From Planctomycetales bacterium (GTDB lineage Bacteria > 4484-113 > JAFGCY01), in NCBI GenBank assembly GCA_022646745.1, contig CP060262.1, positions 1,751,149 through 1,815,148 on the forward strand: a DNA stretch of 64,000 nt, in the 5' to 3' direction. Positions 6,479 to 41,468 of the stretch are shown here, piece by piece (the first letter of the stretch is position 1; each line of letters opens with the position of its first letter). The notes beneath the pieces were generated by a model. It saw only the letters and a list, made by a program, of their open reading frames with translations. It was not told the origin of the DNA and did not search any database. Both the position numbers and the translations under genes were made by a program.

Positions 6479-8029
6479 ATGACAGGAAAGGAGCTGGCCT
6501 CCTATTACCGGGCTGCGGTAGAGTACATCGACCCGCGGCTGCGGGATGACTGTCCCGTCGAGGACATCTGTGCCGCCGCCAAGGCGCGCCAGCATGCGCT
6601 GCGCGCACATGACAGCGACACCGCCCGCCTGGAGCTCGAGAAGATTGAGGAGGCCCTGCAGTTCATCCAGCGTGTGCACCCGGATGTGGTCGATATCTGC
6701 CGGGAGCAGGTGACTGCGGAATATGCCGCAGAAGTTGAACCAGCGTTGGATCTTGCGCATATTGCCCAGTCTGAACCGGAAGTGCAGGATGCCAGCCAGC
6801 TGGTCGCGGATTTCCATGCGGAGGAAGCAATACAGCCTGCCGTGGAAACCGACGAGGCCTCCCTAGTTGACAACTCCGTTGCCGCGCCGGCTGAACGCGA
6901 TGACTACGCCGGTGTGCTGCTGAGCGGCACGACTGCGGATCCCGCGGAAGACGAAATGGTCGAGCTCGTGCTCGGTTCCGGCAGCCATTTCGAGGCGGCA
7001 GTGGAATCCGCAACTGAACTGGAGACAGCAACGGCGGATGAACCGGAACCGGAAGCCATCAGTATTGATTTCGCCGCTGAGCCGCAGGTCATCCAGCCGG
7101 AATCCGTGCTGGAAATTGACGACGCGATTGCTTCCAGTATTGACAACGAAGCTGAAGCAGAATCAGGCGATGCCGGCAGCGAGCTGGCCGCCGCCATGGC
7201 TGCCTCGCGTGAGCATGTGGAAGTGCCGAGCCGCCACCAGTTCATCGCTGAACTGCGAGAGCGCCGCCTCAGCAGCCAGCATGAACTGGCCGCAGAGGAA
7301 GCCGAGCAGGTCATTTCCGAACTGCGTGAGGAGCAGCACAGCGAGGAGCGCGTCAGCGAGCTGATCAGCCGCGTGCCTGATGTCAGTGAACGCATGGAAC
7401 AGGAGCTGCAGCAGGAAGAGCAGACCAGCCGCCCGCTGGACTTCCGCAGCCTGATGTCACGCGCCGGTGCCAACCCGTCGCTGAAGGTCCGCCCAGCCAG
7501 CCGTCCGCGCCTGAAGACCGAGGAAATCCTCGGGCGGGAGAGGCCGGCGCGCCGGATCCCGGAGGAACACGCTGCTCCGATCCTGCTTGGGATGCTCATG
7601 ATCCTGTGGCAATTCAGTGCTGCGCTGCTGGCCGGATTTGCGCTCAGCCGTGCACTGGTCTGGCATTTCGGCACAGCCTTCTCATCCATGACCCCAATCA
7701 AGGCATTATTCACCTGCCTGGTAGGCCTCGGTACGGCCGCCCTGATCGGCGCCGGATTCCGCTATTACCGCCTGCGCAGCCACCGGCTGTCCCTGCCGGT
7801 GCACGTCAGTGCGCTGTCCATCGTGATGCTGCTGCTGTCCTGGCAGTTCAGCGCGAATGCCAACGCCTATGCCAGCGGCCCGCCGTTATGGCTGTGGTGC
7901 ATGCTGTTCGCCGCCTGGCTGGTTGCCACAATCGCCGCCGGACTGCACGACCTGCGTGTGCCGCCTGTCTCTCGTGATCCGGAATCGGAAGTGGTAGCTG
8001 CCAAGCCTGCGGTACCGCTTGCCAACTGA
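6479..8029 (+). CDS. Acidic (E/A/D-rich) protein with C-terminal multi-TM anchor, hypothetical
   Basis: 516-aa ORF. The N-terminal ~350 aa are highly acidic and low-complexity. The C-terminal ~150 aa contain 3-4 hydrophobic helices (ILLGMLMILWQFSAALLAGFAL..., ALFTCLVGLGTAALIGAGF..., LSIVMLLLSWQF..., LWLWCMLFAAWLVATIAAGL). Confidence 0.6.
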   Translation: MTGKELASYYRAAVEYIDPRLRDDCPVEDICAAAKARQHALRAHDSDTARLELEKIEEALQFIQRVHPDVVDICREQVTAEYAAEVEPALDLAHIAQSEPEVQDASQLVADFHAEEAIQPAVETDEASLVDNSVAAPAERDDYAGVLLSGTTADPAEDEMVELVLGSGSHFEAAVESATELETATADEPEPEAISIDFAAEPQVIQPESVLEIDDAIASSIDNEAEAESGDAGSELAAAMAASREHVEVPSRHQFIAELRERRLSSQHELAAEEAEQVISELREEQHSEERVSELISRVPDVSERMEQELQQEEQTSRPLDFRSLMSRAGANPSLKVRPASRPRLKTEEILGRERPARRIPEEHAAPILLGMLMILWQFSAALLAGFALSRALVWHFGTAFSSMTPIKALFTCLVGLGTAALIGAGFRYYRLRSHRLSLPVHVSALSIVMLLLSWQFSANANAYASGPPLWLWCMLFAAWLVATIAAGLHDLRVPPVSRDPESEVVAAKPAVPLAN

Positions 8030-8526
8030 GATTTCCACCGATTCAACTGAGATATTCCGAAAATTCTCGAAATTTCTTTAGCCCTGTCCAGCACAGGGCT
8101 CAACGCATTCCGGTGCGGTGATTTTGCAGGATTTCGTTGCCATTTGGGGAACAAAGCAGCCAGGCTGCTCGTCTATCTGCCCGTGATGGGGTTCCTCCCC
8201 AGTCACGGAAAACAGAGTCGGATTGCCAAGTTATGCAACCGTATAGGAGGCAATGGATGACGGAGAAGGATGATAAGCCGCGAGAACCGCGCATGCTGCC
8301 AGGGAGCACTGGCAGCGACCGTGATCCGGGATGCGTCCCGTTGACACGGTACCCGGGCTGTACCAGCCAGGCCACACGCACCGACGGCCTGTAGCGACCA
8401 CGGACTGCAGCCCTGACCTGATTCACTGAACCACGGCCGTGCGTGCACGGCAAGCCACGGGCTCAGTGCATCCCATACCAAGCTTTGCAGCGGCGCTGCC
8501 GACTGTGGCCGCCGCGAGGAGGAAAC

Positions 8527-13797: not shown

Positions 13798-15840
13798 ATG
13801 CCAACTGAGCAGAACAAGCCGGCCCCTCCAGCCGCGGAAAGCAGCCAGCAGAAGGCGCAGCGCACCAGCTTGCGCAACTCGCGGCGCTTCATCGCGCGCT
13901 GGATCATCATCTCGAGCGTGGTCTCGCTGCTGCTGGGTGGCCTGCTGCTCGTCTTCAATACAAAGATCAACACGCTGCTGGCGGACTTCGACTCGCTCGG
14001 CAGCATCGAGGGCGGCCCGCTGGCGGTATCCATCTTCATGCTGGCCGGCGGCTGCGGCCTGCTGCTCCTGCTGCCGGTGCTTGGCGGCGAGCGGCGCGAG
14101 TGGGAACGGATCATGCCGCTGATCTTCGAGCAGCGCGGCCACTTCTCGAAGATGCTGATGGGCAGCGCGATCTTCGTCGTGACCGAGATGTCATTGCCGG
14201 CCTTCATCGGCTACATGGTGAATGACATTGTCAACACACAGCGCAGCATGCCCGGGCTCTACATCGCGATCGGCGTGCTGCTGGCGGTGCTGGTGCTGCG
14301 CGCCGTCGGCGGCTACTTCCGCCAGAACCACGCACAGGCGCTGGCCTACAGCATCTCCGCCGACCTGCGCCAGAAGCTGTACTCGCACCTGCAGAAGATG
14401 AACTTCAGCTACTTTGACAAGGCCCGCCAGGGCGACCTGATGTCAACGCTGACGAACGACGTGGAGAAGCTGCAGTTCTTCCTGCTGAACTCCAGCGAGG
14501 ACTTCTTCGTGGCCCCGCTGAAGGTCTACATCGGCATCGCCTGCGTGATCTTCCTCAACTGGAAGCTGGCGGTGGTGATCATCCTGACGATGCCGCTGAT
14601 CTCGATCATGCTGAAGTTCGCCGGCGGGCGGCTCAGGCGCATCAACCGCGAGGCGCAGGACTGGGTGGCTAAACTGACGGCGGAGCTGGCGGAGGGCATC
14701 AACACCATCCGCCTGGCCCAGAGCTTCGGCCTCGAGCGCACCGAGCTGTCACGCTTCCAGCACACCAATGAGGAGACCCGGCGGCACCTGCTCGGGCATG
14801 CCCAGGTCAGCGCGGTGCTGCTGCCGATCGTCGAGGCGATCGGCTTCATCGGCCCGCTGGTGATCATCATCTCGCTGTGCTGGTGGGCGATCAGCGGCGG
14901 GGTGGACCTGAAGGCGGCGGAGATCCTCACACTGGCCGGCTACGGCGCGCTGATTGCCAACCCGCTTGGCAAGGTCAGCCGCCTGATGGTGACCCTGTCC
15001 CAGGGCGAGGCCGCCAGTTCCCGCATCAACGGCATCCTCGACACCGAGGCCGCGATCCACGACCTGCCGGATGCCAAGGAGATCGCCGAGGTGGACGGCC
15101 GGATCGAGTTTGACAACGTGACCCTGCAGTACGGCGCGAAGGATGCCTACGCCCTGCGCGAGGTCAACCTCGTGATCCAGCCCGGCACACTGACGGCATT
15201 CGTCGGCGAAAGCGGCAGCGGCAAGTCCAGCCTCGTGCACCTCGTGCCGCGCTTCTACGAGGTGAGCAGCGGGCGGGTGCTGCTGGACGGGCATGACGTG
15301 CGCGGCCTGAAGCTTGCCAACCTGCGCAGCCACATCGGGCTCGTCAGCCAGGACACGATCCTCGTGCATGGCACGATCGCCGAGAACATCGCCTACGGCA
15401 CGCCGGATGCGGACCATGTGGAGATCCTCGGCGCGGCCCAGAGTGCCAACGCCCACACCTTCATCATGGAGTTCCCGGATGGCTATGACACGGTGGTCGG
15501 CGAGAAGGGCGTGACCCTGTCCGGCGGCCAACGCCAGCGCATCGCGATTGCGCGCGCATTGCTGCGCGACCCGCGCATCCTGCTCTTGGATGAGGCCACG
15601 AGCGCACTCGACAGCGTGAGTGAGGCGATGGTGCAGGATGCGCTCAACAAGCTGATGTTCGGCCGCACCACGCTCCTCGTCGCACACCGCCTGTCAACGG
15701 TGCGCCATGCTGACAATATCGTGGTGCTGAAGGCCGGCCGCATCTTCGAACAGGGCAACCATGAGGCACTGATCGCGAAGGGTGGGGAGTACGCACGGCT
15801 CGTGAAGCTGCAGGGCATGGCGCGGGAAGAGTCCGGATAG
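13798..15840 (+). CDS. ABC transporter, fused permease/ATP-binding (MsbA/ABCB-type exporter)
   Basis: Six-TM domain followed by Walker A GESGSGKSS, signature LSGGQRQRIAIARAL and Walker B ILLLDEATSALD. Extra ~90-aa N-terminal extension. Confidence 0.85.
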   Translation: MPTEQNKPAPPAAESSQQKAQRTSLRNSRRFIARWIIISSVVSLLLGGLLLVFNTKINTLLADFDSLGSIEGGPLAVSIFMLAGGCGLLLLLPVLGGERREWERIMPLIFEQRGHFSKMLMGSAIFVVTEMSLPAFIGYMVNDIVNTQRSMPGLYIAIGVLLAVLVLRAVGGYFRQNHAQALAYSISADLRQKLYSHLQKMNFSYFDKARQGDLMSTLTNDVEKLQFFLLNSSEDFFVAPLKVYIGIACVIFLNWKLAVVIILTMPLISIMLKFAGGRLRRINREAQDWVAKLTAELAEGINTIRLAQSFGLERTELSRFQHTNEETRRHLLGHAQVSAVLLPIVEAIGFIGPLVIIISLCWWAISGGVDLKAAEILTLAGYGALIANPLGKVSRLMVTLSQGEAASSRINGILDTEAAIHDLPDAKEIAEVDGRIEFDNVTLQYGAKDAYALREVNLVIQPGTLTAFVGESGSGKSSLVHLVPRFYEVSSGRVLLDGHDVRGLKLANLRSHIGLVSQDTILVHGTIAENIAYGTPDADHVEILGAAQSANAHTFIMEFPDGYDTVVGEKGVTLSGGQRQRIAIARALLRDPRILLLDEATSALDSVSEAMVQDALNKLMFGRTTLLVAHRLSTVRHADNIVVLKAGRIFEQGNHEALIAKGGEYARLVKLQGMAREESG

Positions 15841-26452: not shown

Positions 26453-26911
26453 CTAGTCGGCCCAGACGATGTAGTCGGAATTGACGGCGGGACGGCCGCA
26501 GGCCTTCAGCGATGTGTTCACATACCCGCGGTGGAATGCCGAGTGCAGCACCATGTGCATCAGGATGTCATGCATGCTGCGCTCGCAGTTCTCCCCTTCA
26601 TGGCTTCGGTATCGCAGGCGCAGGCGCAGGTAGGTGTCGTCCATGTTTGAAAGGATGATCTGCAGGCGCAGCTGCGTTGCCAGGTCCATGTCGCGAATCT
26701 GGCGGATCAGCTTGTCCGGCCACATGTCCACGTGGTCCGAGTTGCCCTTGTCAATCCGCTCCAGCCAGCATGCCCGCCCGGCGATGATGTGCGCAGCCTG
26801 CCGCCGCGCCTCTTTCGCGTGTTCGCAGTCACCGGCACGTTCCACGGCGCCGATCACCTTTTCCGTCATTTCGAATTCGTAGGCGAACAGGCGCCTCAGT
26901 TGCGTGACCAT
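26453..26911 (-). CDS. DinB/YfiT-like (DinB_2 superfamily) metal-dependent protein
   Basis: Internal start MVTQLRRLFAYEFEMTEKV (ATG 26909-26911). C-terminal HSAFHRGY motif typical of the DinB four-helix-bundle family. The track ORF up to 27277 is a spurious 5' extension antisense to the next gene. Confidence 0.65.
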   Translation of the reverse strand: MVTQLRRLFAYEFEMTEKVIGAVERAGDCEHAKEARRQAAHIIAGRACWLERIDKGNSDHVDMWPDKLIRQIRDMDLATQLRLQIILSNMDDTYLRLRLRYRSHEGENCERSMHDILMHMVLHSAFHRGYVNTSLKACGRPAVNSDYIVWAD

Positions 26912-27043
26912 AGGAATAATGTAACAGAGCCGGGCATTGCTGGACAGCCCGCACAAAGGCCCGCAAGGTTTGTTTCCACCGCATTGACGGGGTACAATCA
27001 CAGCGGGAATCACCGGCTGAAACAGAATTCCCGGGAGTATGTT

Positions 27044-29026
27044 ATGAAGGGACGTAAGATCGCTTTTCTTCCCTGCGCCATCATCATCCTGCTGCTGCTT
27101 GGGGGCTGCGGTGGGAATGCCGGATCCGGCAATGGATCCACCGCACTGAATGATGCCGCCGGGAAAGACATGAAGCTCGAACAGCAGCTGCAGGCTGAGC
27201 TGCTTGGACTGCTGGCCGATCGGGGGATTGATGCGCAGCGCAGCGCCAGCCGCCCACCGCTCGGTGAAAGCAACCATGTGTTCTCCAGCCGGCTCACGGC
27301 GAATGAACCGGACGGGGCAGGTGATGACGGATCACTGCGCCTGCTGTTCGTGCCCCGGCTGGCCGGTGACTACGATGGCAACGGTGAGGTCGGACTGTCG
27401 GACGTCACACCGCTGGCCCAGAATTTCGGCAAGAGCGTGCTGTATGGCAAACCGGCGCTGCCCGGTGGCGCGGACAACCCGCCGGTTGGCGACCCCTACA
27501 GCGATGGGCATGCCAACTGGCTGCTGTCCCGCTGCGACGGGGATGGCAACGGGGTGATCAGCAGTGCCGACCTGACCGCGATCGCGCTGCACTTCGGCGA
27601 GCGCGCCGATGGCTGGCGCGTGGAATGGCGCAATGATGACTTCTCAGGATTCGCCCCGCTGGCGGACCCCAACGGGCTGCTCGATGGCTACAGCCTCGGC
27701 TGGCAGGACGGCCGGGTTTCCAACCTGGCCCAGGAGTTCATCCTGCCCTGGCCGCTGAGCGGACATGCCGAGGTGCGGCTGCGGGCCTGGGATGCCCGGA
27801 CCGGCAGCGGGGGCGAAGCCAGTGCCGTTCAGGTCTATGACGTGGCCTCCACTGACTGCGTCGCCGCCTTGCAGCTCATCGAGAATGAGCAGCCGGCCCC
27901 CTTCCTTGCACGCTTCACCGCGACCGGCAGCACGGTCGATGCGGACAGCTACGAGCTGGACTTCGGCGACGGCAGCAGCCAGCTGATTGCCAGCATCACT
28001 GAATTCCCGGTCGAGCATCTGTATGAAACCGGTGGCACTTCGCTTGCCACCCTGACCGTCAACTGCGGCCAGGACAGCGCACAGGCCGGCATCACAGCGG
28101 TTGCCACCCCGGTGCCGACAGCCAAGCAGGCCCACATCCTGGCCTTCAGCAATACGGGCTTCGCCCCGCAGACAGTGCATTTCTCCTACCAGTGGACTGA
28201 TGAGCCGGCGGTCAGCTACACGCTGGACTTCGGCGATGGCAGCGAGCCCATCAAGGTCGAGGAGTGGGCCACCCAGCTGCCGACGGAGCATGTCTACACC
28301 ACGGCCGGGGAATACACCGCCAGCCTGACGCTGGAGGCCCGTTACCTCGGGACTTCCGTTGCCAGCGTGCCGGTCACGATCCTGCAGGGTACGCCTGAGC
28401 TGAACCTGAGCATCGAGGCGGAGTACATTGACGCCGGCAATGACAGCATCATCTTCGACTTCAGTGGATCCTCCCCCGTCACCGCCGTGCTGTCACTTGG
28501 AGATGTATTTGCCCCGATAGAAATCGACCTCGGACTGGTCCAGCAGTACGCAATCACCAGCGAGCAGATCATGCAGCTGGACAAGGATGAGAAGGCTACG
28601 ATCAGCGTCGAGATTGCCGGTCAGACCTACAGCGATTCCGTGATGATCCCGCGAAAGAACATTGTCCTGACTCCCGGCGAGCTGGATGTGCTGCTGGTTT
28701 CCATGGACAATACTGGCAACATCCTCGAAACCTTCCCCGGAGTCGGATTCAGCCTGTTGCTCAGCCAGCATGCCAGCACCGGCTCACCGCTGGTCAACAA
28801 GTACACCACCGGCAGCGGCGGGTATTTCATGGTCAGAACCCAGCAGGACAAGCTCAGCAAACTGATCAATCCGGATGGGTCTGACCCGCTCGTACTGCTG
28901 CCGGACCCCGCTGACCGGGCCCTGCTGGAAGCGGACTACATCTGGCCTGAAGGGGACATCAGCCTTTCTCCGTTTGAACTTGTGTATGGAGGCACGCATT
29001 ACATCAGGCTGCGTCCGCGCAGCTGA
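27044..29026 (+). CDS. Surface lipoprotein with dockerin-like repeat pair and PKD-like domains, paralog 1 of 3
   Basis: MKGRKIAFLPCAIIILLLLGGCGG lipobox. Two dockerin type-I-like Ca-binding repeats (GDYDGNGEVGLSDVTPLAQNFG; CDGDGNGVISSADLTAIALHFG). PKD-type motifs YELDFGDGSS, YTLDFGDGSE. Confidence 0.75.
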   Translation: MKGRKIAFLPCAIIILLLLGGCGGNAGSGNGSTALNDAAGKDMKLEQQLQAELLGLLADRGIDAQRSASRPPLGESNHVFSSRLTANEPDGAGDDGSLRLLFVPRLAGDYDGNGEVGLSDVTPLAQNFGKSVLYGKPALPGGADNPPVGDPYSDGHANWLLSRCDGDGNGVISSADLTAIALHFGERADGWRVEWRNDDFSGFAPLADPNGLLDGYSLGWQDGRVSNLAQEFILPWPLSGHAEVRLRAWDARTGSGGEASAVQVYDVASTDCVAALQLIENEQPAPFLARFTATGSTVDADSYELDFGDGSSQLIASITEFPVEHLYETGGTSLATLTVNCGQDSAQAGITAVATPVPTAKQAHILAFSNTGFAPQTVHFSYQWTDEPAVSYTLDFGDGSEPIKVEEWATQLPTEHVYTTAGEYTASLTLEARYLGTSVASVPVTILQGTPELNLSIEAEYIDAGNDSIIFDFSGSSPVTAVLSLGDVFAPIEIDLGLVQQYAITSEQIMQLDKDEKATISVEIAGQTYSDSVMIPRKNIVLTPGELDVLLVSMDNTGNILETFPGVGFSLLLSQHASTGSPLVNKYTTGSGGYFMVRTQQDKLSKLINPDGSDPLVLLPDPADRALLEADYIWPEGDISLSPFELVYGGTHYIRLRPRS

Positions 29027-29134: not shown

Positions 29135-31102
29135 ATGCGTCGACTGAGCGGATCATCCCGGTGGATACTGCTTGCCTGCCTGCTTTTGCTGACGGTGGGT
29201 TGTGCAGGCGGCGGAGGACAGAACACGGAGCAGCAGGCTGCCCTGCAGCAGCCTCCCGCAGCTGACCCGCAGCTGCTGGCTGAGCTGGAGGGCCTGCTGA
29301 TGGACGAGCTGGCCCGGCTGGGCAAGGACCCGCAGCGCACGACTTCAGCGCCACCCGCCGGGAATGGCAACGCCGTGTTCAACCTGCTGGTGGATGCCCG
29401 TCCGCCGGACGGCCTCGGCGGGCAGGGTGACTCGGAATTCCGCTTCTATCCCCGTATGGTCGGTGACTACGATGGCAATGGCGAGGTCGGCATCAGTGAC
29501 ATCACCCCGCTTGGGCAGTACTTCGGCGAGAGTGTGGTGTATGACGACCCGTTGGAGCACGGCGGGATCGCCTACTGGCCGAGCGGTGAACCGGACGGCG
29601 GCGGGCGCACCAACTGGCTGAAGGCCCGCGTCGACGGCGATGGCAACGGCGAGATCAACACGGCGGACATCACCCCGATCGCGATCCACTTCGGCGAGCA
29701 CTGCGATGGCTGGCGCATCGAGCGGCGCTTCGCTGCGGAGACCGGCTTCGAGATGCTGCCGCATGCTGACAATCCTGAGAGTGAGCTAAGCGTCGGCTGG
29801 AAGGAACTCGCCGAGAACAGCATCGGCTACCGCCTGCCCGGCGACTGGCCGGCCAGCGGTTACCTCGAGATGCGGGTGCAGGGCTGGGAATCGGCCAGTT
29901 CCAGTGGCGGTCCGATGAGCGACAGCAGTATCTATGAATTCACGGAAGGCAGTTGCGAGGCATTCCTGCAGGCCAGCCCAACGGTGGCTGACTTCCCCTT
30001 TGACGCGAGCTTCACGGCCGCGGGATCATCCGTGCTGGCCGACTCATACGTGATTGACTTTGGCGACGGCACGGATGCCACTCTGGGCAGCCTGGCCGAA
30101 TTCCCGCTGAGCCACCCGTACAACGAAGCGGGGATCTATGACGTGGTGTTCACGGTCAGCTGTGGCACGGATGTCGCCACGGACAGCTTCCAGATCATCG
30201 CCACCCCGCTGCCCTGTGAGCTGGAGGCGGTGCTTGGTGTCAACCCGATGGATGGCTTCGCCCCGCTCAAGGTGCTGTTCAGCCCGCTCGGCACCAGTCC
30301 CGGTGCGGCCGGCTATGAGCTGGACTTCGGCGATGGCAGCGAGGTCGCCAGCGGGGCCACGCCCTCTGAACTGGCAATCACCCATGAGTATACTGAGACC
30401 GGCAGCTACACCGCCACCCTGCGGGTGGTCTGCGAGAATGGTGGCAACGTCGAGACGACGGTCACGATAACCGTCGGCAACCCTGATGACGAGTGTGGCG
30501 TCAACCTGTCAGTCGATGACGACAGCCCGATCATCGGCACACCGACGGCATTCTTCTTCGGCGGCACCAGCGGTTCTGCTGCCCTGCTGGACCCCGGCGA
30601 CGGCAGTGACGTGCAGTTCATCAACCTGCAGGGGCCGGAGCCGGTGTTCTACACCTACCCGGAGATCGGCACCTACACCGCGGTGCTGTCCATCCTCTGC
30701 AATGACAGCATGCACAGCGACTCGGTGCTGGTGTTCGTACTGCCTGAACCGATCAACACTTTCGATGCGGCGGGCAAGGTCTACCAGTACGAGTCCAACC
30801 CGCCGATCGGCGGACCGGAGCCGGACAAGTTCGCGATGGTTGGCGCGGAGATGGAGATCTACAACTCGACTGACGACGTAGTGATGGGCACGACCACCAC
30901 GGATGCGTCAGGTGCATACTTCTTCGATGGTGACAGCCTGGGCCTTGATGTCAACAAGATCTACTTCGTGCGGCCGACTGATGCGGAACGGGCCAAGCAT
31001 GTCCCGCTGGACTGGTTCCCGGGCCAGGCCACGATCGCCGCACCGCCGGCTGACATGGTTTACACATGCACTGACATCAACCTGCTGGCAACGGAGGTCT
31101 GA
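29135..31102 (+). CDS. Surface lipoprotein with dockerin-like repeats, PKD-like domains and C-terminal Cna-B/CarboxypepD_reg-like domain, paralog 2 of 3
   Basis: Lipobox LLLTVGCAGG. GDYDGNGEVGISDITPLGQYFG and VDGDGNGEINTADITPIAIHFG. YVIDFGDGTD, YELDFGDGSE. C-terminal TTTDASGAYFFDGDS. Confidence 0.75.
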   Translation: MRRLSGSSRWILLACLLLLTVGCAGGGGQNTEQQAALQQPPAADPQLLAELEGLLMDELARLGKDPQRTTSAPPAGNGNAVFNLLVDARPPDGLGGQGDSEFRFYPRMVGDYDGNGEVGISDITPLGQYFGESVVYDDPLEHGGIAYWPSGEPDGGGRTNWLKARVDGDGNGEINTADITPIAIHFGEHCDGWRIERRFAAETGFEMLPHADNPESELSVGWKELAENSIGYRLPGDWPASGYLEMRVQGWESASSSGGPMSDSSIYEFTEGSCEAFLQASPTVADFPFDASFTAAGSSVLADSYVIDFGDGTDATLGSLAEFPLSHPYNEAGIYDVVFTVSCGTDVATDSFQIIATPLPCELEAVLGVNPMDGFAPLKVLFSPLGTSPGAAGYELDFGDGSEVASGATPSELAITHEYTETGSYTATLRVVCENGGNVETTVTITVGNPDDECGVNLSVDDDSPIIGTPTAFFFGGTSGSAALLDPGDGSDVQFINLQGPEPVFYTYPEIGTYTAVLSILCNDSMHSDSVLVFVLPEPINTFDAAGKVYQYESNPPIGGPEPDKFAMVGAEMEIYNSTDDVVMGTTTTDASGAYFFDGDSLGLDVNKIYFVRPTDAERAKHVPLDWFPGQATIAAPPADMVYTCTDINLLATEV

Positions 31103-37113: not shown

Positions 37114-38010
37114 GTGAGAACAACCGCCACCGCCATCTTGCTTTCAATGCTCGTGCTGCTCTGTGCGGCACCGGCCAGCGCTGCGGGCAACAGCCCGGTT
37201 GCCAGCAAGGACGGCGTTACCTTCACGCTTGACGACCTCAACATCTACTGGCTGCGTAACCTCGGCAAGGATGGCCTGCTGGATTTCTTCCAGACGATGG
37301 TCGTCTACCAGGAGGGCCTCAAGCAGGGCCTGCGCCCGACCCAGCAGGAGATGACGGACTTCGTGGACAACACGATGGGCCGCGATGTCTACAACCAGTT
37401 CAAGCTGCTGTACAGCGAGAAGAACGTCAACCAGCTGATCGAGTACACCATCGTCACCGCCAAGTACGAGACCTGGCTGCGTGACAAGATCAGCCGTGAG
37501 AAGAACATCAAGGTCACCGAGGATGAGGCCAACAAGTTCTTCCTCGAGAACATCGAGCAGTTCCACCTGCCGGAGGGTGCGCACCTGTCGATCATCTCCG
37601 TCGACAACGAGGCCGCCGCCAACACGGTGCTCTCGCGGCTTGGCAAGGGCGAGAACTTCGGGGACATCGCCGCCGAGGTGAACATGGACCCGGAGATGCG
37701 CGCGGTGCGCGGCGAGCTGGGCTCCTACCGCCGCGGCGAGGGCCTGCCAAAGCCGCTGGAGGATGCGGCGTTCTCCCTGCAGGAAGGCCAGTACAGCGGC
37801 ATCATCAAGGGCAGCAATTACCACATCGTGTACTGCCACCGGCGCTACCCGGAGGTCAGCCCGACCTTCGAGCAGATCAAGGAGCAGCTGATGGTCGACC
37901 TGCGCGAGGCCAAGATCGACCCCTATTACCTTGATGCGCTGAACGACCTGATGAGCGACCAGCTGCCCAAGTTCAACATCGACGCGGAGCTCTTCCGACC
38001 GGAGGAGTGA
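37114..38010 (+). CDS. Periplasmic peptidyl-prolyl isomerase, SurA/PrsA-like (parvulin domain)
   Basis: Signal peptide MRTTATAILLSMLVLLCAAPASA. Chaperone-like N-terminal domain. Parvulin core HLSIISVDNE…GELGSYRRGEGLPKPLEDAAFSLQEGQYSG…HIVY. Confidence 0.75.
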   Translation: MRTTATAILLSMLVLLCAAPASAAGNSPVASKDGVTFTLDDLNIYWLRNLGKDGLLDFFQTMVVYQEGLKQGLRPTQQEMTDFVDNTMGRDVYNQFKLLYSEKNVNQLIEYTIVTAKYETWLRDKISREKNIKVTEDEANKFFLENIEQFHLPEGAHLSIISVDNEAAANTVLSRLGKGENFGDIAAEVNMDPEMRAVRGELGSYRRGEGLPKPLEDAAFSLQEGQYSGIIKGSNYHIVYCHRRYPEVSPTFEQIKEQLMVDLREAKIDPYYLDALNDLMSDQLPKFNIDAELFRPEE

Positions 38011-38030: not shown

Positions 38031-38060
38031 GGGGCGTGGCAGGGATGCCGCGCCCTTTTC
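38031..38060 (+). terminator. Probable rho-independent terminator after the PPIase gene
   Basis: GGGCG-(13-nt loop)-CGCCC followed by TTTTC. Confidence 0.4.
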
Positions 38061-38304
38061 ACTTTCTGCTGCCAGCCGGACTGTCTGTCAATGCCAGAAT
38101 CTCCGCGAGCCTCCCGGCTGGCAGCGCGGGATGGCAGCCCGGGGGGCCAGGATGTCGGTCCAAACAGTGGCTGGCGATCCAAGTCCGAGCCAAGGCTGAG
38201 CTGCAATCGTGCCAATCCCGTGGGCAGTGCCCGGGGAGCCGGTTTGAAAACGCTTCTGCGTTGCCTGCCGGACGGCCTGCCAACAGTTAACCGTTTCCAG
38301 CGCC

Positions 38305-38470
38305 TGAACCTGCCAATTCTTCGGGGGGCCGGGTGCCAACGATTCCGGCAACGCCGGAAAATGCCAACAATTGGCCGGATTTCACCGGAAATTCGCCAAA
38401 AACGCCCCATTTCTGGCAATATTCCGGGCAAAAGGGCTTGACTTGCGCTAATATTGCCAATAGTACTTCT
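38305..38470 (+). promoter_or_regulatory. Array of ~6 TGCCAA-N2-4-ATTCCGG-like direct repeats plus a TTGACT..TAGTAC promoter upstream of the SRPBCC-H1 gene
   Basis: TGCCAATTCTTCGGGG, TGCCAACGATTCCGGC, TGCCAACAATTGGCCGG, CGCCAAAAACGCC, TGGCAATATTCCGGG, TTGCCAATAGTAC spaced ~20-30 bp apart. CTTGACTTGCGCTAATATTGCCAATAGTACT contains -35/-10-like boxes. Confidence 0.35.
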
Positions 38471-38486
38471 CTAAGGAGTAGACAAA

Positions 38487-39074
38487 ATGGCAAGGAAAAC
38501 CACTTACAGAAGTCGCATTCAGCGCACCATCGATGCTCCCGCCGCCAAGGCGTTCGATGCGTGGGTTGATGCGAAGACGAATGCCAAATGGTATGCGTCC
38601 AGTGCAAACCACGACGCCAAGGTCGGTGGTGCATACAGCAACAGCAACGGTGACAAGGGCCAGTTCCTTGAGGTCTCCAAGGGCAAGAAGCTCCGCTACA
38701 CCTGGGAGAACCCGAAGAACGCCCCCGGCACCGTCGTCACCGTCAACTTCCGTCCCTTCGGCCGCAACAAGTGCAAGGTCCAGGTGACCCACTCCAAGCT
38801 GCCCAAGAAGACCGACATCGACAAGTTCCAGGAGTACTGGAACTGGGCGACTGACAGCCTCAAGAGCTTCATTGACAGCGGGCGCCGCATGACCATGGAT
38901 GCATGGAAGAAGGCCCAGGCTGCCGAAGCGAAGGCCGCTGCCGCTGCCAAGGCCGCCCCGAAGAAGGCTGCCGCCAAGAAGGCCGCTCCGGCCAAGAAGG
39001 CCGCCCCGGCCAAGAAGGCTGCCCCGGCCCGCAAGCCGGCTGCCAAGAAGGCCGCTCCGGCACGCAAGAAGTAG
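38487..39074 (+). CDS. SRPBCC (AHSA1/Aha1-like START-fold) domain fused to a histone-H1-like AKKAAP repeat tail
   Basis: RBS AAGGAG. N-terminal ~150 aa match the activator-of-Hsp90-ATPase-homolog/SRPBCC pattern (…RTIDAPAAKAFDAWVD…KW…). C-terminal ~45 aa are AAKAAPKKAAAKKAAPAKKAAPAKKAAPARKPAAKKAAPARKK. Confidence 0.7.
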   Translation: MARKTTYRSRIQRTIDAPAAKAFDAWVDAKTNAKWYASSANHDAKVGGAYSNSNGDKGQFLEVSKGKKLRYTWENPKNAPGTVVTVNFRPFGRNKCKVQVTHSKLPKKTDIDKFQEYWNWATDSLKSFIDSGRRMTMDAWKKAQAAEAKAAAAAKAAPKKAAAKKAAPAKKAAPAKKAAPARKPAAKKAAPARKK

Positions 39075-39146
39075 TCAATCCGGCAAGCCGGATTCACCGG
39101 GGCAGGGCCATTGCGGTCCTGCCCCGCTCTTTTTTCTTGACAGCCC

Positions 39147-39758
39147 ATGGCCGTTGACGACAGTTTCGCCGAGTTCTGGGACAGGATGTACCGCAACGGC
39201 AGTTACCTCGAACTGTGGGAAGAGCAGGAGCCTGACCCGCAGGTTGGCAGGATGCTGGCTAGCCTTGTGCTGCCGGCCGGCAGCCGGGTGCTGGACCTGG
39301 GCTGCGGCACCGGGCTGGAAGCATGCGCGATGGCCGCGCTGGGCTGGAGTGCCAGTGGGATAGACATCAGCCCGGCAGCAGTCAGCATGGCCCGGGAGCG
39401 CAGCGCAGTGCTCGGCCTCGGGATTGACTGGCGCGTTGGCAGCGTACTTGAACTCCCCTGGGATGACGACTCCTTCGAGCTGCTCACCGACCGCGGCTGC
39501 CTGCACCTGCTTCCACACTCCAAGTGGCCGCTGTATGCCGCCGAGGCCCGCCGCGTACTGCGCCCGGCTGGCCGGCTGCTTGTGCGGGGCTGCAGCGACT
39601 GTGGCAACCCGGACTTCAGCTGCCTGTCACTGGCAATGCTGGAGGAATTGCTGCTGCCAGCCGGCTTCAGGCTGCTCGAATGCGCCCCCCTGCAGCTTGC
39701 CAACAGCCGCGGCGGCCTGCCGGCCCTGTTGTGTCTGCTAGAATCCGCCCATGCCTGA
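39147..39758 (+). CDS. Class I SAM-dependent methyltransferase
   Basis: Motif I VLDLGCGTG. Acidic motif II (…SASGIDIS), …WDDDSFELL…. Confidence 0.75.
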   Translation: MAVDDSFAEFWDRMYRNGSYLELWEEQEPDPQVGRMLASLVLPAGSRVLDLGCGTGLEACAMAALGWSASGIDISPAAVSMARERSAVLGLGIDWRVGSVLELPWDDDSFELLTDRGCLHLLPHSKWPLYAAEARRVLRPAGRLLVRGCSDCGNPDFSCLSLAMLEELLLPAGFRLLECAPLQLANSRGGLPALLCLLESAHA

Positions 39759-40134
39759 GGGCGAAGACAGCTGGGCCGGACAGGATCCGCAGGTGCACTC
39801 CAGTGGACATGCCCGTCGCATGCGCGAACTGGAGGAGGAGCTAGAGGTGGCGCGCCGCCAGGCTGAGATCGAAAAGGCCCGCGCCGAAGCCGTCGTCAGC
39901 CACCTCGTGGTCGAGAACCATGAGCTGCGCCGCCAGGGCACAGCCATCCCCTCGCAGCAGCCACAGCAGAAGCCACGTCGCAACACCGGCTGGATGCTTG
40001 CCGGCAGGCTGGCAGCCAGTGTCAGCTCAATGCTGCTGGGGCTGCTGAGCTGTGTGACCTTTCTCCTGTTCGCAGTGCTGGTCTGGGCTTACTGGCCGGA
40101 AATCTCCGGCCTCATCTTCCCGCCGGGCCAGTAA
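39751..40134 (+). CDS. Small coiled-coil protein with C-terminal TM anchor (127 aa)
   Basis: ELEEELEVARRQAEIEKARAEA heptad segment. C-terminal WMLAGRLAASVSSMLLGLLSCVTFLLFAVLVWAY. Overlaps the previous gene by 8 nt. Confidence 0.5.
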   Translation: MPEGEDSWAGQDPQVHSSGHARRMRELEEELEVARRQAEIEKARAEAVVSHLVVENHELRRQGTAIPSQQPQQKPRRNTGWMLAGRLAASVSSMLLGLLSCVTFLLFAVLVWAYWPEISGLIFPPGQ

Positions 40135-40319
40135 CCGCTTGCTGCCTTAAGCCTGCAAGGTTGTTTGCTTTAATTGACTGGACATCAGCAGGCTCTGCAA
40201 TTCTCACCGGTCGGATCCGGGATCATCAAATCATTTGCCAATATCCCGCGTCCTGTATCAGTGCGGATTTACATGTACGGACGGTACTCCGAATATTCTA
40301 TGTACGCATTGGTGCTTTC

Positions 40320-41468
40320 GTGAGCAGGCATTACGACAGAGTGGATCCCGGGCCGCACAGTCCGGAGGCTGAACGCAGGCGCAACCTGCAGTTCCTGCTC
40401 GCCTCGATCCTGCTCAACGTGCTCGTGATCCTGCTGCTGCCGGCGCTGAGCCGCCAGGTGGACCTGCCGCTGGTGTTCCAGGTTGAGCTGATTGACCCGG
40501 CGGACCCGCCCAGGCCGAAGCCGCAGGTGCCGCTGATCGTGCCGACGGAGGAAGGGCTGACCGCCCAGGCCGCCGGGGCACAGTCCAATGCCGCCGCCCT
40601 GCAGAACATGCAGCAGGCCCCCAGCAACAGCAGTGCGCCGACCCAGGCATCCAGCCCCTCGAACCTCAAGCCCTCCACCGATCCGCGCGATGCAGGGGCA
40701 ACACCGCAGCCGGGCCAGGCCAGCAACAGCTCGAGCATGACCCAGGTGCCGCAGACCAATGCCGACAACCCGAACAGCTCGACGGTGGTTGACACCAAGC
40801 GGCCGGTCAAGACCCAGCAGTCACCGGAGAAGGTCAAGCCCTCCGGCGAGAGCAGCCCGAGCAACAAGGACGCCAAGCCCTCGCAGCAGCAGGACAAGCC
40901 CGCCACCAACGAACCCGCTGTCAACGTCAACTCCAATGCGCCGGCCAGGCCCGTGCAGGATGCGACCCAACCCGCCACCAAACCAGCTGAGGAGCAGCAC
41001 AGCCCGGACGTGAAGGTGCCGGACAAGCCGGCCGAGAAGCAGAATGAACCCTCGGTGACGGTATCCCCAGAGAACAACCCGCAGGTGAATGTCAGCGCTG
41101 ACAAGCCTGACAGCAACACCACCGGCTCCGTGGACCCGGGACCGCCCGCGGCCCCGCCGGGCCCGAGCCAGGCCGAGCTGAACATCCTCGGTGACTACGG
41201 CGATGCGGCACGCAAGAAGATCCGCCGACTGGTGCGCACCCCGGAACGTGCGCGCGAGCGTGACATCAAGGGCCCCGTGACCTTCGAGTTCGAGCTTGAC
41301 CGCAATGGCAACCTGCTTAGCGTGAAGGCCATCGAGAGCCCGCACAAGATCCTCGAGCAGGAATGCTTCGAGGCCACACGTGTCGCGGCACCCTTCGGCA
41401 AGTTCCCGCCGGAGATCACTGTCAAGAGCTGGAAGTTCCGCATGAAGCTCGAATTCCCGATCGTCTGA
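40320..41468 (+). CDS. tonB: TonB-family energy transducer (start uncertain: GTG 40320 or ATG 40161)
   Basis: Single N-terminal TM (LLASILLNVLVILLLPAL). Pro/Gln/Ala-rich spacer. C-terminal TonB domain (…IKGPVTFEFELDRNGNLLSVKAIESP…). Lower-GC sequence 40140-40320 looks non-coding and contains a weak Fur-box-like GATCATCAAATCATTTGCC. Confidence 0.6.
   Translation: MSRHYDRVDPGPHSPEAERRRNLQFLLASILLNVLVILLLPALSRQVDLPLVFQVELIDPADPPRPKPQVPLIVPTEEGLTAQAAGAQSNAAALQNMQQAPSNSSAPTQASSPSNLKPSTDPRDAGATPQPGQASNSSSMTQVPQTNADNPNSSTVVDTKRPVKTQQSPEKVKPSGESSPSNKDAKPSQQQDKPATNEPAVNVNSNAPARPVQDATQPATKPAEEQHSPDVKVPDKPAEKQNEPSVTVSPENNPQVNVSADKPDSNTTGSVDPGPPAAPPGPSQAELNILGDYGDAARKKIRRLVRTPERARERDIKGPVTFEFELDRNGNLLSVKAIESPHKILEQECFEATRVAAPFGKFPPEITVKSWKFRMKLEFPIV

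Follow-up and report, generated by a model that had tools for sequence, protein, structure and literature searches.

The window analysed here is a 64,000-nucleotide (nt) stretch of contig CP060262.1, deposited as 'Planctomycetales bacterium'. It contains a gene whose product combines an N-terminal domain of the SRPBCC superfamily with a C-terminal tail consisting mainly of lysine, alanine and proline (K/A/P tail). This two-part architecture can be regarded as practically certain. The features of the locus and the genes mentioned below are listed in Table 1.

Table 1. Features of the SRPBCC-tail locus and other genes of the window (positions in the window; aa, amino acids; AF2, AlphaFold2)
Feature	Position	Strand	Remarks
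PKD-domain protein	26732-29026	+	
PKD-domain protein	29135-31102	+	
PpiC-type peptidyl-prolyl isomerase (PPIase) gene	37114-38010		Pfam
Terminator-like hairpin after PPIase gene	38031..38056	+	11-pair stem, 8 GC pairs, T-rich tail
TGCCAA array	38210..38460	+	six exact hexamers: 38210, 38278, 38311, 38334, 38362, 38455
Inverted repeat TGGCAATATT / AATATTGCCA	38414..38459	+	perfect 10-nt arms, 100% complementary, 26 nt between
Shine-Dalgarno AAGGAG	38473..38478	+	8 nt before ATG
SRPBCC-tail gene	38487..39074	+	195-aa open reading frame (ORF), ATG start, TAG stop; coordinates match exactly
AHSA1-type SRPBCC (helix-grip) domain	38487..38879	+	residues 1-131; Pfam, AF2, Foldseek
Ala-rich alpha-helix MDAWKKAQAAEAKAAAAAKA	38895..38954	+	residues 137-156; AF2; joins domain to tail
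Disordered polycationic tail, AKKAAP-type repeats	38955..39071	+	residues 157-195; predicted from AF2, composition, Tandem Repeats Finder
Intrinsic terminator	39098..39136	+	stem 39098-39126 plus T-run CTCTTTTTTC; 12-pair stem, 10 GC pairs; 24 nt past stop
S-adenosylmethionine (SAM)-dependent methyltransferase, TPMT/Methyltransf_25-like	39147-39758		downstream of SRPBCC gene
Conserved 127-aa ORF	39751-40134	+	overlaps methyltransferase stop; predicted C-terminal hydrophobic segment
TonB-like protein	40161-41468	+	linker long and rich in P/S/Q/K; ExbB and ExbD come next
PKD-domain protein, 1883 aa	53882-59533	-	multiple PKD domains and PQQ/beta-propeller region

The N-terminal module is an AHSA1-type SRPBCC domain. 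In a Pfam scan residues 16-128 matched AHSA1 (PF08327) with E=1e-19 (71.4 bits against a cut-off of 22.1), the match covering positions 1-123 of the 125 positions of the profile. The only other matches at E<=1 were to Polyketide_cyc2 and, weakly, to MDHAR3; at the same threshold there was no match to Aha1_N, to linker_histone (the H1 winged-helix domain) or to a helix-turn-helix (HTH) domain. A signal peptide or a transmembrane segment was not found in the sequence either. Sequence matches in PDB were the Plasmodium Aha1-like protein 3ni8 (4e-6) and CV1439 (1z94, 7e-5). The AF2 model, which was built from 59 sequences, had a mean pLDDT (predicted local distance difference test) of 88.9, with values above 94 over residues 11-150. 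It consists of a strand (7-15), two helices (19-27 and 29-35), six strands and a long helix (109-131), which is the E-H-H-E6-H order of the helix-grip topology. When the model was compared with PDB by Foldseek, 252 matches were obtained at E<=1e-3. The top ones were all of AHSA1/START type, led by CalU16 (4fpw), MLL2253 (3q63), the C-terminal domain of human Aha1 (8z3h) and CV1439; for the first three the probability was 1.0. The original prediction of an N-terminal AHSA1/SRPBCC domain was thus borne out by the Pfam score above the gathering cut-off, the PDB sequence matches and the confident helix-grip model, but the extent of about 150 aa given to it was not: the folded part ends around residue 131 and is followed by an extra helix (137-156).

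Residues conserved in the subfamily (W35, G47, G48, G58, W73, V84, W118, G132 and W140) are present in the window protein, and W140 is nearly invariant across the subfamily. Compared with the orthologue L003 (see below), the ratio of nonsynonymous to synonymous substitution rates was 0.11-0.14 for the SRPBCC domain and 0.09 for the adjoining PPIase gene, values indicating that the N-terminal module is under purifying selection. The globular part (residues 1-142) has a net charge of +15 and an isoelectric point (pI) of 10.1, a basic character that the original prediction did not mention. This charge is the joint highest among the 148 nearest family representatives, in which it ranges from -16 to +15. 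In the databases the orthologues are labelled only as 'SRPBCC domain-containing protein' or 'YndB with AHSA1/START domain'.

The Ala-rich helix that joins the domain to the tail was modelled with a block-mean pLDDT of about 97 up to residue 150, dropping to 86 over residues 151-160. From residue 157 on the model has no secondary structure, and the block means fall to 52-64 for residues 161-195; the tail is predicted to be intrinsically disordered. The 53-residue segment starting at residue 143 contains 28 A, 15 K, 6 P, 2 R, 1 Q and 1 E (net charge +16), and Tandem Repeats Finder identified 5.1 copies of an imperfect 18-nt (6-aa) unit at 38973-39061. The last 45 residues (151-195, nt 38937-39071), AAAAKAAPKKAAAKKAAPAKKAAPAKKAAPARKPAAKKAAPARKK, consist exclusively of A, K, P and R. 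This composition and the 18-nt period agree with the 45 C-terminal residues of AKKAAP-type repeats that had been predicted. A six-frame scan of the window did not reveal a second K/A/P-rich segment.

Five syntenic orthologues (the window protein counted) were compared, each flanked by genes for a PpiC-type PPIase and a SAM-methyltransferase. Their lengths are 179 aa (L001, GCA_020440645.1), 195 aa (the window allele, also present as exact copies in L004 and L005, two independent metagenome contigs), 258 aa (L002, GCA_020440665.1), 273 aa (L006, metagenome-assembled genome (MAG) 'UBP7 HKST-UBA03') and 315 aa (L003, a JGI metagenome), the tails extending 37, 53, 116, 131 and 173 residues, respectively, beyond the domain. 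A single-protein scan of GTDB genomes yielded one orthologue, L006, which is labelled as candidate phylum UBP7; the taxonomic labels available for the lineage ('Planctomycetales bacterium' and UBP7) disagree.

The K/A/P reading frame is kept to the stop codon in all five orthologues, and four of them end in ...AAPARKK. All tail indels that could be resolved are multiples of 3. Those between the window and L001 (48 nt) and between the window and L002 (189 nt) are in frame, and the tail edges are conserved. In L003, whose flanking genome is about 75% identical to the window, the tail has a different, V-rich sequence, yet the charge is kept (+60 over 173 residues), suggesting that it is the composition of the tail and not its sequence that is conserved. 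The alternative frames would give R/P-rich or Q/E/G-rich sequence, which was never seen among the orthologues. The tail is not a product of chance, since all five syntenic orthologues retain the frame although they differ widely in length. The conservation of frame, charge and edges, together with the length changes, indicates that the tail is a translated part of the protein whose composition and charge are under selection, whereas its hypervariable length shifts fast. The expectation that the tail would be in frame in related genomes held for L001, L002, L003 and L006 as well as for the exact copies in L004 and L005.

Some peculiarities of the related sequences should be mentioned. L004 (2045 nt, corresponding to 38136-40180) and L005 (1712 nt, corresponding to 38373-40084) are 100% identical to the window and contain the exact 195-aa allele. 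Both contigs break within the upstream TGCCAA region, a pattern that strain heterogeneity at the locus or assembly breaks induced by repeats could explain. A near-identical 174-aa protein (P0001) encoded by a 797-nt ENA contig diverges in the middle of the tail and ends in ...KKAAPKKDDKK; this end is probably a contig-end or assembly artefact and not a true variant. L002 is a mosaic. It is identical to the window in the PPIase gene, in the 476-nt intergenic region and in the 600 nt past the stop codon, and only 2 mismatches were counted in 6078 nt downstream, whereas there are 28 differing positions within the SRPBCC domain (38487-38912 of the window was compared with L002:6001-6426 and L006:3001-3426). 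The L002 domain is 100% identical to that of L006, whose flanks are about 78-84% identical to the window. The window allele of the domain is close to the L001 allele (6 differences). Either co-resident populations have recently undergone gene conversion, or the L002 MAG contains a de Bruijn-graph chimera.

The combination of an AHSA1 domain with a basic extension was also found outside this lineage. A first homologue search returned four AHSA1 proteins (P0005-P0008), 22-30% identical, with AKKAAP-like tail ends, but this search was biased to shared tail words; a word-index search with the N-terminal domain alone found two near-identical proteins only. When the domain by itself was used in an exhaustive, unbiased HMMER search, 609 matches were obtained at E<=1e-3, the nearest non-orthologous relatives being at most 41% identical. 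A basic low-complexity N- or C-terminal extension, defined as a 25-residue stretch outside the domain with a net charge of at least +8 and at least 80% A/K/R/P/S/T/G, was present in 11 of the 148 nearest representatives (7%), leaving about 93% of the family representatives without such a tail. The basic-extension architecture thus recurs in the subfamily and is not unique to the window protein. The database search for the fusion architecture that had been suggested accordingly turned out positive, with K/A/P-tailed or basic-extended AHSA1 proteins in distant lineages. Cluster look-ups of the tail-bearing relatives led to metagenome sources only.

Extensions of another kind were observed in the same set. 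In 19 of the 148 representatives a weakly DUF4287-like N-terminal extension of about 75 aa was detected at E<=1e-3. As a conserved module of 70-80 residues, such an extension precedes the AHSA1 domain in many of the closest relatives (P0012, P0022, P0026, P0032 and about 30 others), with the consensus ..SD..V...TGK.W..WF..LD..G...KGH...A..L...HGV..WW.Q..TV.YE..RGLR. The DUF4287-like extension was modelled by AF2 as a four-helix bundle (pLDDT 78). The best Foldseek match of this model had E=2.4 (weak homeodomain-like matches only), PDB contained no sequence match, and the literature search gave nothing useful; lacking a significant structural or PDB sequence match, the extension is not claimed to be a DNA-binding domain. 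A close subfamily relative, P0019, starts with what reads as the end of an ArsR-type HTH (no Pfam support at E<=0.01). A few relatives are fused to GNAT, DinB_2/MST or glyoxalase/bleomycin-resistance domains, which hints at small-molecule chemistry.

The gene is preceded by 476 nt of non-coding DNA, in which the terminator-like hairpin parts it from the PPIase gene. The most frequent 6-mer of this intergenic region is TGCCAA: six exact copies occur within 250 nt where about 0.3 would be expected, and any 6-mer reached at least six copies in 2% of dinucleotide shuffles (P ~0.02). The copies are spaced irregularly (68, 33, 23, 28 and 93 nt), and there are degenerate ones (CGCCAA at about 38394 and the inverted-type TGGCAAT at 38414). 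Four sites are at identical alignment columns in L003. An upstream repeat array had been noted in the original prediction; its existence stands, but its layout is dispersed and not tandem. On both strands of the whole window TGCCAA was found 71 times (41.8 expected), an excess that is probably due to GCC-AAG codon pairs. Clusters at 7858-8224 and 14955-15444 lie mainly within coding sequence and were rejected as comparable arrays, and between genes the window has no other cluster of this sort. The hexamers are candidate binding sites for a regulator, through which expression of the gene may be controlled.

The most conserved intergenic stretch is the inverted-repeat block, which is kept in all four aligned loci and whose arms flank a conserved, -35-like TTGACT (38438-38443). 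The block is presumed to be the core promoter/operator (TTGACT...TAGTAC); a scan of the upstream region with the sigma-70 consensus did not detect a full promoter. In the strong Shine-Dalgarno sequence AGGAG is invariant in all four loci, L003 having CAGGAG for AAGGAG. Rfam gave nothing credible in the 476-nt region (two sub-threshold matches overlie the terminator), which speaks against a known riboswitch or leader upstream of the gene, and across the window no family reached the gathering threshold, so that this search revealed no family of tRNA, rRNA or riboswitches. The strong intrinsic terminator on the 3' side is conserved in L001 and L002. Its position close behind the stop codon indicates that the gene, which has terminators on either side, is monocistronic.

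The neighbouring genes include gmk, rpoZ, coaBC, purB, fab genes, the PPIase and methyltransferase genes, tonB-exbBD and genes of PKD-domain proteins. This is a housekeeping region, not a mobile or biosynthetic island. The order 127-aa ORF, TonB-like protein, ExbB and ExbD is kept in L001-L003. The PKD-domain proteins are probably large surface or secreted proteins.

These data suggest the following mode of action. The product, with a mass of about 21 kDa and a pI of 10.4, would be soluble and cytoplasmic. It is made of two modules: an AHSA1-type SRPBCC domain, a type known in bacteria to bind small hydrophobic molecules and having an unusually basic surface in this case, and the Ala-rich helix followed by the disordered AKKAAP-repeat tail, whose composition resembles that of the histone H1 C-terminal domain. 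The SRPBCC domain would bind a ligand. The tail would hold the protein on a polyanion by electrostatic attraction irrespective of sequence; this polyanion is most probably chromosomal DNA, in which case the SRPBCC domain would become concentrated on the nucleoid. With a gain of about +2 charge per repeat, alteration of the tail length between strains by repeat slippage would tune avidity. Tails of this type have been studied in other bacteria. Rhodococcus MLDS owes its non-specific DNA binding to PAKKA motifs, by which lipid droplets become tethered to the chromosome; K-to-E replacements abolish the binding (PMC5504291). The PAKKA tail of Ku contacts DNA, and its authors concluded that such tails arose repeatedly on unrelated proteins (PMC3553676). 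Coupling of START domains to folded DNA-binding domains is known from Rv0576 and the HD-Zip proteins (PMC13525633). By analogy with the tested tails, the originally predicted tethering to DNA, the nucleoid or polyanionic surfaces is plausible. The odds that the anchor acts mainly on DNA or the nucleoid are close to even.

Several observations weigh against this assignment. Binding by polycationic tails extends to RNA, ribosomes, polyphosphate and acidic membranes, any of which may be the partner in vivo, and the window tail matches no curated H1/Hc2 profile. The adjacent genes (coaBC, PPIase, methyltransferase and TonB-ExbBD) give no functional link, and the distant tail-bearing AHSA1 genes lie in other neighbourhoods than the window gene. 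The 7% frequency of basic extensions stands without a matched background control, and some of the tail-length differences could partly reflect assembly problems in repeats.

The strongest competing explanation, although unlikely, is that the basic SRPBCC surface and the tail together dock on rRNA or polyphosphate granules, the partner being RNA, the ribosome or polyphosphate. It would fit the polycationic character of the entire protein, which is not confined to the tail. In E. coli another SRPBCC protein, RatA, binds to the 50S ribosomal subunit, basic tails are present on translation factors, and a similar tail was seen on P0009, a ribosome-silencing-factor-like protein (PF02410). The sole NCBIfam match of the window tail was to the tail region of a valine-tRNA ligase model. 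AlgP was found to associate with polyphosphate granules, which its authors speculate it tethers to the chromosome (PMC9239181). However, nothing specific to translation or polyphosphate was noticed in the window protein, there are no ppk, ppx or ribosomal genes adjacent to it, and the experimentally tested PAKKA/KPAA tails cited here all bind DNA.

It was also considered whether the tail might not be an anchor at all. It could be a tolerated slippage expansion of GC-rich GCC-AAG repeats, or act as an entropic bristle, a solubility tag or a condensate-forming region, with the SRPBCC domain having an ordinary cytosolic small-molecule job. The 4-5 fold variation in length among close relatives is what slippage-prone repeats would produce, and the great majority of the family works without such a tail. 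Yet frame, K/A/P composition, positive charge and the C-terminal end persist down to the genome identity of L003 despite a high indel rate, neither of the other two frames has been encountered, and basic extensions arose independently many times in the subfamily. This explanation is rated as improbable, somewhat below docking on RNA or polyphosphate.

A surface adhesin binding a polyanionic matrix in the manner of mycobacterial HBHA or laminin-binding Hlp, its tail lysines perhaps methylated by the adjacent methyltransferase, is very improbable. In its favour, the methyltransferase gene lies directly downstream in every syntenic locus, and HBHA is reported to have a Lys-rich, methylated C-terminal tail and no signal peptide (PMC8467707, PMC10665949). 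Against it, the window protein has neither a signal peptide nor a transmembrane segment, and HBHA itself is now reported to be nucleoid-associated (PMC10665949). Methylation of the tail by this enzyme was rejected, as a terminator separates the genes, the enzyme is of a small-molecule type and it is not a neighbour of the distant fusions.

If the tail does anchor the protein to DNA, one may go a step further and imagine a chromatin-resident small-molecule binder. It could be a nucleoid-coating SRPBCC protein that sequesters hydrophobic DNA-damaging compounds at the DNA or intercepts them sacrificially by the logic of CalC and CalU16, or a ligand-sensing nucleoid-associated protein that changes DNA compaction or transcription on binding a ligand, with tail length tuning the affinity for chromatin. 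This extended scheme is doubtful.

Bacterial AHSA1/START-like proteins are very numerous and nearly all are without known function, so a subfamily that repeatedly gains polycationic extensions offers a concrete clue. The gain of tails and the polycationic domain suggest that some AHSA1 proteins act on or beside nucleic acids. Should the tail tether the protein to the nucleoid, the cargo-module principle of MLDS, PhaF and AlgP would be extended to a small-molecule-binding fold, and uncultured phylum UBP7 would have a candidate nucleoid-associated protein; the in-frame, strain-level hypervariability of tail length would represent a natural avidity series. Were it merely a solubility tail, the finding would be ordinary. 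Lysine-rich tails being a recurrent accessory, the architecture is only moderately surprising.

Comparison with known systems shows which parts of the protein are familiar. The bacterial AHSA1/YndB-type proteins (B. subtilis YndB, CV1439 1z94, MLL2253 3q63 and P. aeruginosa 8es5) belong to the same PF08327 family and share the helix-grip fold. These consist of a single domain, are about 140-160 aa long and usually have an acidic to neutral character, whereas the window protein has a domain charge of +15, an extra helix and a 39-residue polycationic tail. It is not an Aha1 Hsp90 co-chaperone: Aha1_N is missing, and the domain, which is homologous to the C-terminal domain of Aha1, starts at residue 1. 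The best structural match of the model, CalU16 (4fpw; E=1.3e-9), is 17-18% identical. CalC, CalU16 and CalU19 confer enediyne self-resistance by intercepting a DNA-damaging small molecule, and CalU16 does not have a basic tail. A cluster-encoded resistance protein of CalC type was ruled out, the gene being located in a housekeeping region and not in an enediyne biosynthetic cluster; a protective role like that of the CalC family is speculation.

A START-like domain is likewise coupled to DNA in M. tuberculosis Rv0576 (ArsR-type) and in plant HD-Zip III/IV proteins (PMC13525633). These read specific operators by a folded winged HTH or homeodomain, whereas the window protein would use a non-specific disordered tail, which suggests a chromatin-associated rather than an operator-specific role. 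Unlike the Rv0576-like ArsR-HTH-AHSA1 regulators, it has no N-terminal extension or winged HTH. The literature search found no paper describing an SRPBCC domain with a histone H1-like tail, and a 2026 review of bacterial START proteins does not mention such tails.

The tail itself has many parallels. It shares composition, repeat style, terminal position and predicted disorder with the tails of mycobacterial Hlp/MDP1 and Ku (PAKKA), MLDS, P. aeruginosa AlgP (KPAA), HBHA and chlamydial Hc2, and the terminal high-charge K/A/P repeat run typical of PAKKA/KPAA tails is present in it. Only the composition of the tail is H1-like; a linker histone H1 was ruled out by the absence of the winged-helix globular domain. 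Chlamydial Hc2 (PF07382) was excluded because the window protein has no HC2 match at E<=1. The orthologue P0004, with a tail of 173 aa, does match the HC2 profile (63.2 bits against a cut-off of 40), which is regarded as compositional and not homologous. In MLDS an N-terminal module that targets lipid droplets and does not itself bind DNA is tethered to DNA by the tail (PMC5504291), a corresponding role with polyphosphate granules has been suggested for AlgP (PMC9239181), and a like logic is proposed for the window protein. It differs from proteins with MLDS/AlgP-type tails in that the module is an SRPBCC domain, and in its lineage, which is candidate phylum UBP7 and not Actinobacteria, Pseudomonas or Chlamydia. 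By analogy, the window protein most resembles the proteins composed of a cargo module plus an H1-like tail, such as MLDS and AlgP, with an SRPBCC domain as the module.

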